In this document: in pieces, positions 5,301 through 18,673 of the stretch | Numbering within the stretch: position 1 is the stretch's first letter | How the letters are laid out: every line of letters starts with the position of its first letter | Assembly (NCBI RefSeq): GCF_003334765.1 | Contig: NZ_QOWT01000002.1 | From: Escherichia coli | GTDB taxonomy: Bacteria; Pseudomonadota; Gammaproteobacteria; Enterobacterales; Enterobacteriaceae | Strand: one strand, 5' to 3' | Length of the DNA: 64,000 nt | Made by a program: the position numbers and the translations under genes | Notes under the pieces: generated by a model | The model's input: the letters and a program-made list of their open reading frames with translations, nothing else | Database searches by the model: none | Told to the model about the DNA's origin: nothing

Positions 5301-6131
5301 TGCTGCGCTATTGTTCTCATCGACTAACACGCCTCCGTTCTGGCTGTAGCTGTCATCAACAGAAATATCAATAAGATAGGGAGCCGTCACGCTATTGGTA
5401 TATATCGCCCCGCCATAACCTTCGGCAGTGTTATTTGTAAAGGCAGTGTTATTTACTATCGTATAACCTGAAGGATGCTTGCTGTCGCTATTATTATCGG
5501 TAACATCGATTGCCCCGCCATCGCCATCACTGTAACTTGTTGATGTATATGCCTGGTTGTTATCAAAAATAACATCACTTAAATAAACGTCATTATTAAT
5601 GGTATAAATTGCGCCACCTTTGCCATCATTAGCGATGTTATTGCGAAACATGGCGTTAGTGACACGTAAATCGACGGCACCAGTATCGTTAGTACCAGAA
5701 GAATAGATTGCGCCACCATAGCCGCCTGCGACGTTACCGGAAAAAATAACATCAGTAAGATTCAGCGTTGAGTTTTCTTTAGCAAATATGGCCCCGCCGT
5801 TATTATATTCTCCTGTAACGGTGTTATTGGCAAACAGAGTCATTCCAGTTTCATTTTCTGGTAATAGTGAAAATTCCGCTCCTTGTTGCAAAAATACGGC
5901 CCCACCGCTGGCGTTATTGGTCATATCCGAAAAAACCAGCCATTGCCCATCAGCGATACTCCAGTCCTGCGTAATGCCTGAAAGGCTTTGCCTGCTGGCC
6001 TGACAACTCGCTTTGACATCATATCCCTGGCATGAATCAGTGACCGCCGCGACACCGTTAGCAGAGAAAAGAGATGCAATCATTGACGGGAGTAAAGATA
6101 AATACTCCTTGCGTAGAAAGATAATCCGCAT
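2385..6131 (-). CDS. yfaL: AIDA-I-type autotransporter adhesin (1248 aa in this window)
   Basis: Track ORF 2385..6131; signal peptide, long G/N/T-rich beta-helical passenger with repeated GGAIY motifs, Pro-rich PDPTPDP linker, C-terminal beta-barrel ending in W. Confidence 0.92.
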   Translation of the reverse strand: MRIIFLRKEYLSLLPSMIASLFSANGVAAVTDSCQGYDVKASCQASRQSLSGITQDWSIADGQWLVFSDMTNNASGGAVFLQQGAEFSLLPENETGMTLFANNTVTGEYNNGGAIFAKENSTLNLTDVIFSGNVAGGYGGAIYSSGTNDTGAVDLRVTNAMFRNNIANDGKGGAIYTINNDVYLSDVIFDNNQAYTSTSYSDGDGGAIDVTDNNSDSKHPSGYTIVNNTAFTNNTAEGYGGAIYTNSVTAPYLIDISVDDSYSQNGGVLVDENNSAAGYGDGPSSAAGGFMYLGLSEVTFDIADGKTLVIGNTENDGAVDSIAGTGLITKTGSGDLVLNADNNDFTGEMQIENGEVTLGRSNSLMNVGDTHCQDDPQDCYGLTIGSIDQYQNQAELNVGSTQQTFVHALTGFQNGTLNIDAGGNVTVNQGSFAGIIEGAGQLTIAQNGSYVLAGAQSMALTGDIVVDDGAVLSLEGDAADLTALQDDPQSIVLNGGVLDLSDFSTWQSGTSYNDGLEVSGSSGTVIGSQDVVDLAGGDNLHIGGDGKDGVYVVVDASDGQVSLANNNSYLGTTQIASGTLMVSDNSQLGDTHYNRQVIFTDKQQESVMEITSDVDTRSDAAGHGRDIEMRADGEVAVDAGVDTQWGALMADSSGQHQDEGSTLTKTGAGTLELTASGTTQSAVRVEEGTLKGDVADILPYASSLWVGDGATFVTGADQDIQSIDAISSGTIDISDGTVLRLTGQDTSVALNASLFNGDGTLVNATDGVTLTGELNTNLETDSLTYLSNVTVNGNLTNTSGAVSLQNGVAGDTLTVNGDYTGGGTLLLDSELNGDDSVSDQLVMNGNTAGNTTVVVNSITGIGEPTSTGIKVVDFAADPTQFQNNAQFSLAGSGYVNMGAYDYTLVEDNNDWYLRSQEVTPPSPPDPDPTPDPTPDPDPTPDPEPTPAYQPVLNAKVGGYLNNLRAANQAFMMERRDHAGGDGQTLNLRVIGGDYHYTAAGQLAQHEDTSTVQLSGDLFSGRWGTDGEWMLGIVGGYSDNQGDSRSNMTGTRADNQNHGYAVGLTSSWFQHGNQKQGAWLDSWLQYAWFSNDVSEQEDGTDHYHSSGIIASLEAGYQWLPGRGVVIEPQAQVIYQGVQQDDFTAANRARVSQSQGDDIQTRLGLHSEWRTAVHVIPTLDLNYYHDPHSTEIEEDGSTISDDAVKQRGEIKVGVTGNISQRVSLRGSVAWQKGSDDFAQTAGFLSMTVKW
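3296..3372 (-). repeat. in-frame Pro-Asp/Thr microsatellite-like repeat inside yfaL (encodes PPSPPDPDPTPDPTPDPDPTPDPEPTP)
   Basis: Plus strand shows iterated ggatc(a/g)gg / gggtc(g/t)gg units; translated linker between passenger and barrel. Confidence 0.75.
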
Positions 6132-6664
6132 ATTAATCTAACCATCATTTTCTATAAGACGGCGTATTTAATCGCATTATACGATATGGAATATCTTTCT
6201 TTTGTAAATTGTTCAACCCGGTGCAATGGCTATTTTGTTATTATTTGATGAATAATATCAGTGCGTCATAATTCAAGTTAATAACCTTCAGGGATATCAG
6301 TTATATTTAAACTAAATTAAAGTCATGAATAATTTTCTTATAATATAAGGTAAATTAACAAAATGGCTTAGCATTTAACAATAACCGAATAGAAAACAAC
6401 CATTTCGCCATCAACAATCTCTTACATTCGCTTATATATTGACCACAACTGATACATCAGATTATGTGATGACTCGTGCTTAGATCAATTTTTGCAATCA
6501 TTAGCAAAAAGATTAATAAACCATCTATATCAATTTATCTAACCTATTATGCCGTTCAAGAAATCGCCGAACAGTTATTTTTAACAAATTTTTCTCTTCC
6601 CATTGACTTTCCCGGACACCTTGTCTGACCTAAGGTGCGCGAAAGCCACTTTTTCCTTCCTGAG

Positions 6665-6826: not shown

Positions 6827-9112
6827 ATGAATCAGAATCTGCTGGTGACAAAGCGCGACGGTAGCACAGAGCGCATCAATCTCGACAAAATCCATCGCGT
6901 TCTGGATTGGGCGGCAGAAGGACTGCATAACGTTTCGATTTCCCAGGTCGAGCTGCGCTCCCACATTCAGTTTTATGACGGTATCAAGACCTCTGACATC
7001 CACGAAACCATTATCAAGGCTGCCGCAGACCTGATCTCCCGTGATGCGCCGGATTATCAGTATCTCGCCGCGCGCCTGGCGATCTTCCACCTGCGTAAAA
7101 AAGCCTACGGCCAGTTTGAGCCGCCTGCGCTGTACGACCACGTGGTGAAAATGGTCGAGATGGGCAAATACGATAATCATCTGCTGGAAGACTACACGGA
7201 AGAAGAGTTCAAGCAGATGGACACCTTTATCGATCACGACCGTGATATGACCTTCTCTTATGCTGCCGTTAAGCAGCTGGAAGGCAAATATCTGGTACAG
7301 AACCGCGTGACCGGCGAAATCTATGAGAGCGCCCAGTTCCTTTATATTCTAGTTGCCGCGTGCTTGTTCTCGAACTACCCGCGTGAAACGCGCCTGCAAT
7401 ATGTGAAGCGTTTTTACGACGCGGTTTCCACATTTAAAATTTCGCTGCCGACGCCAATCATGTCCGGCGTGCGTACCCCGACTCGTCAGTTCAGCTCCTG
7501 CGTACTGATCGAGTGCGGTGACAGCCTGGATTCCATCAACGCCACCTCCAGCGCGATTGTTAAATACGTTTCCCAGCGTGCCGGGATCGGCATCAACGCC
7601 GGGCGTATTCGTGCGCTGGGTAGCCCGATTCGCGGTGGTGAAGCGTTCCATACCGGCTGCATTCCGTTCTACAAACATTTCCAGACAGCGGTGAAATCCT
7701 GCTCTCAGGGCGGTGTGCGCGGCGGTGCGGCAACGCTGTTCTACCCGATGTGGCATCTGGAAGTGGAAAGCCTGCTGGTGTTGAAAAACAACCGTGGTGT
7801 GGAAGGCAACCGCGTGCGTCATATGGACTACGGGGTACAAATCAACAAACTGATGTATACCCGTCTGCTGAAAGGTGAAGATATCACCCTGTTCAGCCCG
7901 TCCGACGTACCGGGGCTGTACGACGCGTTCTTCGCCGATCAGGAAGAGTTTGAACGTCTGTATACCAAATATGAGAAAGACGACAGCATCCGCAAGCAGC
8001 GTGTGAAAGCCGTTGAGCTGTTCTCGCTGATGATGCAGGAACGTGCGTCTACCGGTCGTATCTATATTCAGAACGTTGACCACTGCAATACCCATAGCCC
8101 GTTTGATCCGGCCATCGCGCCAGTGCGTCAGTCTAACCTGTGCCTGGAGATAGCCCTGCCGACCAAACCGCTGAACGACGTCAACGACGAGAACGGTGAA
8201 ATCGCGCTGTGTACGCTGTCTGCTTTCAACCTGGGCGCAATTAATAACCTGGATGAACTGGAAGAGCTGGCAATTCTGGCGGTTCGTGCACTTGACGCGC
8301 TGCTGGATTATCAGGATTACCCGATCCCGGCCGCCAAACGTGGAGCGATGGGTCGTCGTACGCTGGGTATTGGTGTGATCAACTTCGCTTACTACCTGGC
8401 GAAGCACGGTAAACGCTACTCCGACGGCAGCGCCAACAACCTGACGCATAAAACCTTCGAAGCCATTCAGTATTACCTGCTGAAAGCCTCTAATGAGCTG
8501 GCGAAAGAGCAAGGCGCGTGCCCGTGGTTTAACGAAACCACTTACGCGAAAGGGATCCTGCCGATCGATACCTATAAGAAAGATCTGGATACCATCGCTA
8601 ATGAGCCGCTGCATTACGACTGGGAAGCTCTGCGTGAGTCAATCAAAACGCACGGTCTGCGTAACTCCACGCTTTCTGCTCTGATGCCGTCCGAGACTTC
8701 TTCGCAGATCTCTAACGCCACTAACGGTATTGAACCGCCGCGCGGTTACGTCAGCATCAAAGCGTCGAAAGACGGTATTTTGCGCCAGGTGGTGCCGGAC
8801 TACGAGCACCTGCACGACGCCTATGAGCTGCTGTGGGAAATGCCGGGTAACGATGGTTATCTGCAACTGGTGGGTATCATGCAGAAATTTATCGATCAGT
8901 CGATCTCTGCCAACACCAACTACGATCCGTCACGCTTCCCGTCAGGAAAAGTGCCGATGCAGCAGTTGCTGAAAGACCTGCTCACCGCCTACAAATTCGG
9001 GGTCAAAACACTGTATTATCAGAACACCCGTGACGGCGCTGAAGACGCACAAGACGATCTGGTGCCGTCAATCCAGGACGATGGCTGCGAAAGCGGCGCA
9101 TGTAAGATCTGA
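6827..9112 (+). CDS. nrdA: class Ia ribonucleoside-diphosphate reductase alpha subunit (761 aa)
   Basis: Track ORF 6827..9112; [33 protein letters not shown]... with ATP-cone N-terminus and catalytic-site cysteines; full-length match to NrdA. Confidence 0.97.
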
Positions 9113-9120
9113 TATTGAGA

Positions 9121-9323
<203 letters not shown>

Positions 9324-9345
9324 AAACTCCCAACAGGACACACTC

Positions 9346-10476
9346 ATGGCATATACCACCTTTTCACAGACGAAAAATGATCAGCTCAAAGAACCGATGT
9401 TCTTTGGTCAGCCGGTCAACGTGGCTCGCTACGATCAGCAAAAATATGACATCTTCGAAAAGCTGATCGAAAAGCAGCTCTCTTTCTTCTGGCGTCCGGA
9501 AGAAGTTGACGTCTCCCGCGACCGTATAGATTACCAGGCGCTGCCGGAGCACGAAAAACACATCTTTATCAGCAACCTGAAATATCAGACGCTGCTGGAT
9601 TCCATTCAGGGTCGTAGCCCGAACGTGGCGCTATTGCCGCTTATTTCTATTCCGGAACTGGAAACCTGGGTCGAAACCTGGGCGTTCTCAGAAACGATTC
9701 ATTCCCGTTCCTATACTCATATCATTCGTAATATCGTTAACGATCCGTCTGTTGTGTTTGACGATATCGTCACCAACGAGCAGATCCAGAAACGTGCGGA
9801 AGGGATCTCCAGCTATTACGATGAGCTGATCGAAATGACCAGCTACTGGCATCTGCTGGGCGAAGGTACCCACACCGTTAACGGTAAAACTGTGACCGTT
9901 AGCCTGCGCGAGCTGAAGAAAAAACTGTATCTCTGCCTGATGAGCGTTAACGCGCTGGAAGCGATTCGTTTCTACGTCAGCTTTGCTTGTTCCTTCGCAT
10001 TTGCAGAACGCGAATTGATGGAAGGCAACGCCAAAATTATTCGCCTGATTGCCCGCGACGAAGCCCTGCACCTGACCGGCACCCAGCATATGCTGAATCT
10101 GCTGCGCAGCGGCGCGGACGATCCTGAGATGGCGGAAATTGCCGAAGAGTGTAAGCAGGAGTGCTATGACCTGTTTGTTCAGGCAGCTCAACAGGAGAAA
10201 GACTGGGCGGATTATCTGTTCCGCGACGGTTCGATGATTGGTCTGAATAAAGACATTCTCTGCCAGTACGTTGAATACATCACCAATATCCGTATGCAGG
10301 CAGTCGGTTTGGATCTGCCGTTCCAGACGCGCTCCAACCCGATCCCGTGGATCAACACTTGGCTGGTGTCTGATAACGTGCAGGTTGCTCCGCAGGAAGT
10401 GGAAGTCAGTTCTTATCTGGTCGGGCAGATTGACTCGGAAGTGGACACCGACGATTTGAGTAACTTCCAGCTCTGA
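9346..10476 (+). CDS. nrdB: class Ia ribonucleoside-diphosphate reductase beta subunit (376 aa)
   Basis: [56 protein letters not shown]...; ATG at 9346. The track ORF 9115..10476 is extended upstream across the REP repeats by read-through translation. Confidence 0.96.
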
Positions 10477-10730
10477 TGGCCCGCGTTACCCTGCGCATCA
10501 CTGGCACACAACTGCTGTGCCAGGATGAACACCCTTCCCTTCTGGCGGCGCTGGAATCCCACAATGTGGCGGTTGAGTACCAGTGTCGCGAAGGTTACTG
10601 CGGCTCCTGTCGCACACGCCTGGTTGCAGGTCAAGTTGACTGGATTGCCGAACCGTTAGCCTTTATTCAGCCGGGGGAAATTTTGCCCTGTTGTTGCCGG
10701 GCAAAAGGCGATATTGAAATCGAGATGTGA
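10476..10730 (+). CDS. yfaE: 2Fe-2S ferredoxin-like protein (84 aa), NrdB cofactor maintenance
   Basis: Track ORF 10476..10730; CxxxxCxxC...C cysteine pattern (CREGYCGSCRT ... CCC); start overlaps nrdB stop by 1 nt. Confidence 0.9.
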   Translation: MARVTLRITGTQLLCQDEHPSLLAALESHNVAVEYQCREGYCGSCRTRLVAGQVDWIAEPLAFIQPGEILPCCCRAKGDIEIEM

Positions 10731-10783: not shown

Positions 10784-11434
10784 TTACATGGCGTAGTAAT
10801 ACGCTTTCACCTGCTCCCAGTCCGCTTTGGGGATTGGCTCCAGATATTTTTCCAGCTGGCGGAAGTCATGATTAATCGCTTTATCGCGACGCAAGCGGCG
10901 ACGACTTTTCTCCAGGTCAAGAAAACCAGCTTCTGCATTACCTTCTGTTTTCACATAGATATGGCGAACATAACAACAGCCATGCTGACGATTAATGCTA
11001 TGCATTTTCTTAAACGCCAGCGCCACTGCTTTCAACATGGCTTGCCGTACTTCGTCAGAATAAGGCGATACTGCATGCTGGGCATACCAGTCAGCAATGC
11101 TGATGAACCCCGCCATATCTTCAGTCACCAGCAACGCTCGCCATTCACCCTCAATTTTCACCGCTTCACCAAAAACGATCTTCGGCACGATGACACCGGC
11201 CCGTTCCAGTTCTTTAATTACCGCAACCTCACGGACAATCGTTGGTCGGCCGAACGGATAACGTACGGAATGAAACAGATGATGCGTCATGCGCTTTACA
11301 TACAGCTTTTTGCCGTTGCGCTCGACGCATTGCACCCCGCTCATACCATTACGGCGATAGTTAGGCTCTTCAACCCAGTCGCCCTCTGTTGCCCACCAGT
11401 GATTAAATTCGTCGTACTTTGCTGAAACTGCCAT
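10784..11434 (-). CDS. inaA: acid-inducible Kdo/WaaP-family kinase-like protein (216 aa)
   Basis: Track ORF 10784..11434; MAVSAKYDEFNHWWATEGDWVEEPNYRRNGMSGVQ... matches InaA. Confidence 0.9.
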   Translation of the reverse strand: MAVSAKYDEFNHWWATEGDWVEEPNYRRNGMSGVQCVERNGKKLYVKRMTHHLFHSVRYPFGRPTIVREVAVIKELERAGVIVPKIVFGEAVKIEGEWRALLVTEDMAGFISIADWYAQHAVSPYSDEVRQAMLKAVALAFKKMHSINRQHGCCYVRHIYVKTEGNAEAGFLDLEKSRRRLRRDKAINHDFRQLEKYLEPIPKADWEQVKAYYYAM

Positions 11435-11648
11435 ACCCTATCGCCTGTCATTTTTATTAACGACAATGACTATAGGTGGTTACCTGAGGAAAATCTTAAT
11501 GAAACGTGTCGTATTAATGAATTTCTTTTGCCACTACTAGCTTGACACCGCTTTTACCCTTCATTTGCAGCGCATAGATTCCACCAGCCACTACCACTAA
11601 TAGTGCGCCCAGCAGATAAAATGTGAATTTAATCAGGCGGATACAGCG

Positions 11649-11855
11649 ATGAATTTTATTCGACAGGGATTAGGCATCGCCTTACAACCAGAGTTAACGC
11701 TGAAAAGCATTGCAGGTGAATTGTGTTCCGTTCCTCTCGAACCAACTTTCTATCGACAGATTTCGTTGCTGGCTAAAGAAAAGCCGGTAGAAGGCAGTCC
11801 ACTGTTTTTACTACAAATGTGCATGGAACAATTAGTGGCGATTGGAAAAATTTGA
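11649..11855 (+). pseudogene. yfaH: LysR-family regulator C-terminal remnant (68 codons)
   Basis: Track ORF 11649..11855 encodes only a LysR substrate-binding-domain C-terminal fragment (..IALQPELTLKSIAGELCSVPLEP..) with no HTH domain upstream; position between inaA and glpQ matches the K-12 yfaH remnant. Confidence 0.55.
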
Positions 11856-11863
11856 TATGAGAC

Positions 11864-11887
11864 AGGATGGCGCATGAACGCCATCCT
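11864..11887 (-). terminator. hairpin downstream of glpQ (putative glpTQ terminator)
   Basis: Perfect inverted repeat aggatggcg-catgaa-cgccatcct 10 bp past the glpQ stop; no strong T-run, so confidence is moderate. Confidence 0.45.
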
Positions 11888-11896
11888 GCAGTAACA

Positions 11897-12973
11897 TTAC
11901 TCTTTATTAAGAAATTTTACTGCCTTATCAGGGAAATCAGTAAACAGCCCATTTACACCCGCTTTGTTATACAGAGCATCATATAACTGATTCACATCAG
12001 GAGTGTATTCAGGCAGTTTATCTGACCGCACGGTATAAGGATGCACTACCAGTTTATTCTGCTGAGCATCTTGCACCATGCCAGTGAGTTTGATATTACC
12101 CGGCTGCGATGTCTCCTCAATCAACATATGGTAATCCGGACCAATACCATCTGCATATTCCGCCACCTGTTTCATGGCACCCGGCTTAAACATCCAGTCG
12201 TAGTTGTAATTAACCCAGCTTCCATCCGGCTGTTTCTGCTGCGTTTCATTCCAGTCGGTATAGGCAATCAGCTGTACCAGATTGAGCTCCATGCCCATTT
12301 TGGGTTCCAGCTCATTCTTAATACGCTTCAGCTCATCAGCATCAAAACATTGCAAATAAACTTTATCGTCTTTACCGGTGTAACCATATTTCTTCAGCAC
12401 TTCCAGCGTTTTTGCCGCAATATCCTTCCCTTCCTGATGATGGAACCACGGCGCTTTGATTTCTGGATAAATACCGATATTTTTCCCGGTAGAGTGATTT
12501 AACCCCTGAACAAATTCAATCTCTTCTTCAAAGGTGTGCACCCGGAAGTCGGACTTACCCATTGGGAAACGCCCCGGATAAGTCTGCACTTTTTTACCGT
12601 TTTCAATATCGAAACCTTCGGTAAATTTCAACGACTTAATTTCATCCAGCGTGAAATCTATCGCGTAGTAACGACCGTCTTTGCGCGCCCGATCCGGGAA
12701 ACGATCGGCAACATCAGTAACACGATCGAGGTAATGGTCATGCAGAACAACCAGATTGTCGTCTTTGGTCATCACCAAATCCTGTTCCAGATAATCCGCT
12801 CCCTGCGCATACGCCATCGCTTTTGCTGGCAGCGTATGCTCCGGCAAATATCCACTGGCACCGCGATGGGCGATGACTATTTTTTCGTTGCTGTCCGCCG
12901 CCATTGCACTGCTTCCCATGACTATAGTGCTCATCATGATCGCCATGCTAAGGTTTTTCAGCGTCAATTTCAT
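11897..12973 (-). CDS. glpQ: periplasmic glycerophosphodiester phosphodiesterase (358 aa)
   Basis: MKLTLKNLSMAIMMSTIVMGSSAMAADSNEKIVIAHRGASGYLPEHT...; the track ORF 11897..13030 is N-terminally extended and the true ATG is at 12973. Confidence 0.94.
   Translation of the reverse strand: MKLTLKNLSMAIMMSTIVMGSSAMAADSNEKIVIAHRGASGYLPEHTLPAKAMAYAQGADYLEQDLVMTKDDNLVVLHDHYLDRVTDVADRFPDRARKDGRYYAIDFTLDEIKSLKFTEGFDIENGKKVQTYPGRFPMGKSDFRVHTFEEEIEFVQGLNHSTGKNIGIYPEIKAPWFHHQEGKDIAAKTLEVLKKYGYTGKDDKVYLQCFDADELKRIKNELEPKMGMELNLVQLIAYTDWNETQQKQPDGSWVNYNYDWMFKPGAMKQVAEYADGIGPDYHMLIEETSQPGNIKLTGMVQDAQQNKLVVHPYTVRSDKLPEYTPDVNQLYDALYNKAGVNGLFTDFPDKAVKFLNKE

Positions 12974-14608: not shown

Positions 14609-18673
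<4,065 letters not shown>

Follow-up and report, generated by a model that had tools for sequence, protein, structure and literature searches.

The yfaH fragment (b2238) of Escherichia coli K-12 is already known as an annotated pseudogene, and its history is one of ordinary gene decay. The RefSeq record of MG1655 (NC_000913.3) lists 'pseudogene yfaH b2238' at 2349687..2349893 (207 bp), and the copy in the 64-kb window analysed here, by which we mean the whole stretch of DNA, has the same sequence and coordinates, with no difference. Published mentions of 'yfaH' are incidental (as a linked marker site, among the entries of a qRT-PCR table on CpxR and in a listing of uncharacterised genes), and a literature search with 'b2238' returned nothing relevant.

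Other strains of E. coli carry an intact LysR-type regulator gene at this position. Among named NCBIfam relatives, the intact protein scores best with CynR, GltC and AlsR, which are LysR-type regulators (LTTRs) whose genes are oriented divergently to their target gene. The intact allele is likewise built from an HTH_1 and a LysR_substrate domain and lies divergent from an MFS transporter gene, with a T-N11-A palindrome between the two, whereas the window encodes only the last ~27% of the protein. For the transporter partner, the best NCBIfam matches are the MFS subfamily PRK05122 (NF003477, E = 1.4e-31) and the 'arabinose transporter' MFS subfamily PRK12382 (NF009048, E = 3.6e-24). Both matches are near full length, but the scores of 110 and 85 bits fall far under the curated cutoffs of 374 and 364, respectively, and the intact partner is therefore a distinct, uncharacterised MFS protein.

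The formation of bacterial pseudogenes by deletion between short direct repeats provides a further point of comparison. The likeness lies in the retention of one 8-bp repeat copy, in a deletion of exactly the inter-repeat distance and in the lack of a mobile element; for yfaH, the mechanism is read from the anatomy of the junction only. We consider it very likely, with a probability of roughly 95%, that yfaH is a dead gene fragment left by one 1,879-bp deletion across a divergent MFS/LysR pair.

Results

The LysR tail extends beyond the yfaH reading frame

The window is E. coli K-12 DNA, with 1 mismatch to MG1655 over the 8 kb compared. This sole difference is a G>A change in glpA at window position 14906 (K-12 coordinate 2352944), which by reading of the frame alters the first base of codon 100, from GAC (Asp) to AAC (Asn). 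The yfaH ORF sits inside the 462-bp gap between inaA and glpQ, in the following arrangement:

9346..10476, nrdB
10476..10730, yfaE
10784..11434, minus strand, inaA, the left neighbour of yfaH
11435..11513, ancestral spacer upstream of inaA, from the inaA start codon to the MFS stop codon, untouched by the deletion
11514..11620, minus strand, 3' remnant of the MFS transporter gene, a stop and about 35 codons (residues 362-396 of 396), covering the last transmembrane helix and tail
11613..11620, deletion junction, at which only one copy of the 8-bp direct repeat CAGATAAA survives
11613..11855, plus strand, 3' remnant of the LysR-family regulator gene, 80 codons and a stop (residues 213-292 of the intact protein), from alignment to L001, L005 and L002
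11649..11855, plus strand, yfaH (b2238) ORF, 68 codons, with its ATG at 11649 and its stop ending at 11855
11863..11888, hairpin CAGGATGGCG-N6-CGCCATCCTG, with a 10-bp stem, located between the stop codons of the convergent yfaH and glpQ
11897..12973, minus strand, glpQ, the right neighbour of yfaH, followed by glpT

To the left of this region, an ORF running upstream of nrdB (9115..9345) translates to repeated units and resembles the REP/BIME palindromic repeats of an nrdA-nrdB spacer; MG1655 annotates a tiny gene, yoaM (b4779), in the same region.

A preliminary description of this DNA had recognised a 68-codon, C-terminal LysR fragment between inaA and glpQ, and both the ORF and its family are borne out, the stump being 86% identical to the intact 299-aa LysR protein over 79 aa (residues 213-291; tblastn E = 3.6e-39). 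The estimate of ~68 surviving codons holds for the length of the ORF but not for the extent of the homology, which starts 12 codons upstream of the yfaH ATG, at 11613, so that 80 LysR codons survive. PGAP gives the same extent in a strain with identical sequence, where it is annotated as 'LysR family transcriptional regulator; incomplete; missing N-terminus'. The 68-aa peptide on its own matches the Pfam LysR_substrate profile (PF03466) weakly (E = 0.0075), and since this match is marginal, the identification rests on the intact alleles rather than on the Pfam profile. NCBIfam NF007272 also matches residues 1-68 of yfaH, and is a 68-residue model of the yfaH fragment itself.

The start codon of the ORF corresponds to codon 225 of the regulator. 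This codon reads ATC (Ile) in intact alleles from Escherichia (L001, L002, L005, L007, L008 and L019) and is Met in some intact Citrobacter and Kluyvera orthologues. The 68-codon frame exists only through the ATG found at this codon in deletion alleles as against ATC in intact Escherichia.

When the window was searched by tblastn with the intact LysR protein, residues 213-291 alone were matched, and neither HTH nor other N-terminal LysR sequence was found upstream or elsewhere in the 64 kb. The absence of an HTH-encoding region from 11435..11648, as described previously, therefore stands, and re-inspection recovered no intact upstream frame; the stretch is not empty, though, as it contains the MFS tail on the opposite strand. 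Relocation of the N-terminal part of the gene within the window was also considered and is rejected, as tblastn finds no such piece.

Measured against a functional LTTR, the window lacks the HTH_1 domain (PF00126) that the intact allele possesses, and its LysR_substrate domain is confined to model positions 144-189 of 209, compared with positions 2-188 in the intact allele. Nor does it retain a promoter or operator of its own: the ATTAA-N5-TTAAT box with T-N11-A spacing is absent from both strands of the window, and a consensus scan found no sigma-70 promoter in 11350..11950. Left without a DNA-binding domain, with about one quarter of the effector-binding domain and with its native promoter lost, the LysR tail cannot act as a regulator. 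Its descent from an LTTR is nevertheless clear from its similarity to the intact regulator at the orthologous locus together with conserved synteny, and, being shorter than the full-length orthologues found at this chromosomal site, it shows the truncation of a pseudogene.

The intact MFS/LysR locus

In intact E. coli alleles the order is inaA (minus), a 396-aa MFS transporter (minus), a 292-299-aa LysR regulator (plus) and glpQ (minus). Such alleles are found in strains EC17GD31 (L001), XJ6-3 (L002) and O157:H7 (L005), and also in 042; a blood isolate is among the carriers. The intact regulator has an HTH_1 domain at residues 3-63 (E = 1.2e-17) and a LysR_substrate domain at residues 88-267 (E = 1.5e-36), and reaches no NCBIfam equivalog cutoff except that of the model built on the fragment. 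This model, NF007272 (PRK09729), is a 68-residue 'equivalog' named 'hypothetical protein', against which the intact 299-aa LysR protein (L001 7369-8268) scores 140.8 bits with a cutoff of 139; intact LysR regulators could consequently be mislabelled as 'hypothetical protein' by a family modelled on yfaH.

The control region between the two intact genes contains the palindrome ATTAATCGTTTTAAT (ATTAA-N5-TTAAT; L001 7333-7347), which in L001 ends some 21 bp before the start codon of the LysR gene. The palindrome block is invariant, or nearly so, across five genera, and T-N11-A is a motif typical of LysR operators; this palindrome is a candidate LysR operator for a regulon as yet uncharacterised. 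A TTGTGA block, farther from the LysR start than the palindrome, is also nearly invariant across the five genera. Judging by other LTTRs, the ancestral module probably paired a ligand-responsive LTTR with a divergent, efflux-type MFS gene under its control.

Several further variations were observed around the intact locus. O157:H7-type alleles carry an extra 356-aa ORF without an NCBIfam family between the LysR gene and glpQ (L005 4711-5781), and a frameshifted copy of this ORF adjoins a K-12-type deletion allele in an APEC O78:H4 strain (L022 2422-3465). A contig labelled 'Collinsella sp. MAG' (L006 2080-3147) encodes E. coli-like MFS, LysR and GlpQ proteins (98.5-100% identity) as well as an ORF of the 356-aa type (93%), and is probably mis-binned. 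The XJ6-3 locus (L002 9471-10349) is a mosaic, in which the MFS protein is 98% identical to that of other E. coli and the LysR protein 84%, with the 3' end of the LysR gene at 75-77% DNA identity; this pattern suggests that the XJ6-3 LysR gene is a recombination import. In about 99 genomes, the whole MFS/LysR segment is present at 80-90% DNA identity (85.4% in the two listed, H58 and H59).

Selective constraint and expression signals of the fragment

Fragments from deletion alleles were compared with the nearest intact E. coli alleles over shared codons (Nei-Gojobori), giving dN/dS values of 0.57-1.22 from small counts (each comparison has about 12-18 differences); nearly all pairs of intact alleles give 0.05-0.14. 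Constraint is thus relaxed relative to the intact copies, as it is in a pseudogene, with the reservation that these counts are small. All deletion alleles share the changes Y216C, H220Q, P221A/S, S226N/K and L237Q, at five residues that are invariant in every intact orthologue compared, from Escherichia to Kluyvera, within the block IKYEFNHP.TA[IM]SFI[RH]QGLGIALLPELTLK. One deletion allele (L021) has an extra frameshift, 38 codons into the remnant and 26 codons into the ORF, which is also noted by PGAP. Taken together, these substitution patterns are those of a LysR stump that appears to be decaying about neutrally.

The yfaH ORF is still uninterrupted in K-12, as it is in 4 of the 5 other sampled deletion alleles, an observation that counts against a dead fragment. 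It is also preceded, 9 nt upstream of the ATG, by a weak SD-like motif, AGGCGG, which arose through H220Q and P221A (CACCCGG>CAGGCGG) and is broken in L020 (CAGTCGG) and L021 (CAGTCAG). In derivatives of BW25113, the yfaH qRT-PCR signal is up 7.7-fold in a delta-cpxR/pnlpE strain (PMC9600279), from which it follows that some transcription crosses the fragment. In MG1655, a marker cassette inserted in place of yfaH has served as a neutral marker linked to gyrA (PMC2714960).

These features raise the alternative of exaptation, in which ATC>ATG and CACCCGG>CAGGCGG changes after the deletion would have produced a translated 68-aa YfaH micro-protein with a new role, such as one that would interfere with the oligomerisation of other LysR regulators. 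If so, the micro-protein would keep the C-terminal surface of the LTTR effector domain and could modulate LysR-family regulators or serve in another role, and yfaH would be a case of gene birth from pseudogene debris. An open frame in most sampled deletion alleles, a start codon and an SD-like motif that are both substitutions relative to intact Escherichia alleles, the transcript signal and the dedicated 68-aa NCBIfam model are all in keeping with such a product. A dN/dS of about 1 is not, and neither are the broken SD-like motifs of L020 and L021, the frameshift within the ORF of L021, the substitutions at residues invariant in all functional orthologues or the use of yfaH as a neutral linked-marker site; moreover, the ATG need not be a selected novelty, as Met is also present in intact Citrobacter and Kluyvera. 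We therefore regard exaptation as very improbable, and prefer the reading of yfaH as a dead gene fragment.

Between the fragment and glpQ, the hairpin at 11863..11888 is predicted to fold at -19.5 kcal/mol (z = -5.7), with 0 of 200 shuffles folding as well. Intact Escherichia loci (L001, L008 and L019) share this stem but differ in the loop, indicating that the hairpin was inherited from the intact locus. It is probably a transcription terminator; for lack of an adjacent T run, it was not called in a terminator consensus scan of 11350..11950. An Rfam scan of 11300..12000 produced a match to the RmaA sRNA on the minus strand (11805..11904), overlapping this hairpin; its score of 24.1 bits (E = 0.085) is below the gathering threshold of 57, and the match was taken as chance.

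A single junction at an 8-bp direct repeat

Comparison of the window with intact alleles by blastn yields two colinear segments that overlap at window 11608..11620, and the junction was read base by base from the aligned sequences and the blast coordinates. In the intact L001 allele, CAGATAAA occurs twice, in the MFS gene (6126-6133) and in the LysR gene (8005-8012), with the copies 1,879 bp apart; when the comparison of the two copies is extended to 11608, 11 of 13 bases match. The 1,879 bp missing from K-12 took with them codons 1-361 of the MFS gene (its 5' 91%), the entire 151-bp control region between the two genes and codons 1-212 of the LysR gene (its 5' 72%), which include the HTH. The proposal in the preliminary description that the fragment is the remnant of a deleted ancestral regulator gene gains its support from these colinear intact alleles and the one 1,879-bp gap that separates them from K-12.

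On the left-hand side of the junction lies the MFS stump, which aligns with the intact 396-aa transporters of L001 and L005 with 31 of 35 columns invariant in all three. A functional MFS transporter has twelve transmembrane helices in two six-helix halves, of which the stump encodes residues 362-396 only. It is annotated by PGAP as a partial pseudogene in other strains and carries no annotation in the MG1655 RefSeq record, in which it is a second gene stump; it is the other half of the same deletion scar as yfaH. Beyond it, the spacer at 11435..11513 is colinear with the intact alleles (96.6-97.5% identity) and with the allele found in phylogroup B2 strains.

The same junction is present in six deletion alleles, including that of the window, with one C>T base change in L020. 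Within the fragment, the five other strains show up to about 5% divergence from the window, and their common junction points to a single old event behind the K-12-type deletion. No foreign or IS-derived sequence was found at the junction, and the retention of one copy of a short direct repeat without foreign sequence is a classic signature of slippage or illegitimate recombination. Judging from junction anatomy, the deletion fits replication slippage or another form of RecA-independent illegitimate recombination.

The K-12 state might alternatively be the product of several events, such as separate truncations or an IS-mediated deletion, rather than of one deletion mediated by microhomology. 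IS elements do reach this segment, as seen from an IS1 insertion in at least one intact-allele strain (H31), but no evidence for such a series was found. Since both flanks are colinear with the intact alleles up to a single shared 8-bp repeat, no IS or foreign sequence interrupts the junction and all sampled alleles have the same one, a history of several events is very improbable, and we retain the single deletion.

Distribution and polarity of the alleles

To place the K-12 state among other strains, 5,426 complete E. coli genomes were searched by megablast with window 11400..11920, which showed the locus to be polymorphic. The census of alleles is as follows:

3,105 of 5,426, K-12-type deletion allele, junction-spanning query contiguous
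1,233 of 5,426, deleted 1.87-kb segment present
1,057 of 5,426, remnant-free third allele (e.g., E2348/69 and NC101), with a 202-bp inaA-glpQ spacer
31 of 5,426, unclassified, by difference

The three main alleles (intact, 1.9-kb deletion and remnant-free) thus account for 5,395 of the 5,426 genomes. They appear to follow the phylogroups, with K-12 in A, O157:H7 in E, 042 in D, and E2348/69 and NC101 in B2.

An intact ancestor was sought at the locus, as the preliminary description had suggested, and was found both in other E. coli and in five other genera or clades. In a scan of one genome per species, orthologues of the regulator were recovered from cryptic lineages of Escherichia (E. whittamii, Escherichia sp. 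E1V33 and MOD1-EC7003), four species of Citrobacter, and Kluyvera, Superficieibacter and Phytobacter. With few exceptions, these loci keep the order nrdB-yfaE-MFS(-)-LysR(+), followed by glpQ-glpT where the downstream flank was matched. The conservation of this order across Escherichia clades and other genera shows that the MFS/LysR pair is ancestral and the K-12 state derived.

The position of inaA between yfaE and the MFS gene is found in Escherichia only. In the loci from Citrobacter, Superficieibacter, Kluyvera and Phytobacter (L009-L018), inaA is absent, with about 10 bp separating yfaE from the MFS stop codon; at the yfaE-MFS site, inaA looks like an Escherichia-specific insertion.

The B2-type allele, as seen in E2348/69 (L004 6036-6237), contains no MFS or LysR remnant in its 202-bp inaA-glpQ spacer, about 120 bp of which show no homology to the other alleles and outgroup loci retrieved. 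This allele may represent either an older, independent deletion or a replacement. That yfaH was instead acquired as a partial gene by recombination, from an ancestral state that was empty and B2-like, would accommodate the remnant-free allele of 1,057 genomes and its 120-bp spacer without homology to other alleles, but is scarcely conceivable given that six intact Escherichia loci and four other genera have an MFS-LysR pair at this position, and that on both sides the K-12 flanks run seamlessly into the two gene tails.

Discussion

We propose the following history for the locus. The ancestral arrangement consisted of two genes divergently oriented around a control region of 151 bp, with the MFS transporter encoded on the minus strand and the LysR-type regulator on the plus strand. 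In the K-12 lineage, one deletion of 1,879 bp then took place between the CAGATAAA repeats, of which each gene carried one, leaving the 80-codon LysR tail and the 35-codon MFS tail back to back. The LysR tail has subsequently drifted about neutrally.

The significance of this finding for K-12 itself is small, as it confirms an existing pseudogene annotation. What is added to the known pseudogene is the 80-codon extent of the homology, a base-exact junction, the MFS stump and a census of the alleles. The three alleles at the inaA-glpQ site could, in addition, serve as a simple marker of E. coli lineages. Outside the window, several enterobacterial genera conserve the uncharacterised intact MFS/LysR pair, and it is this pair that might repay study.
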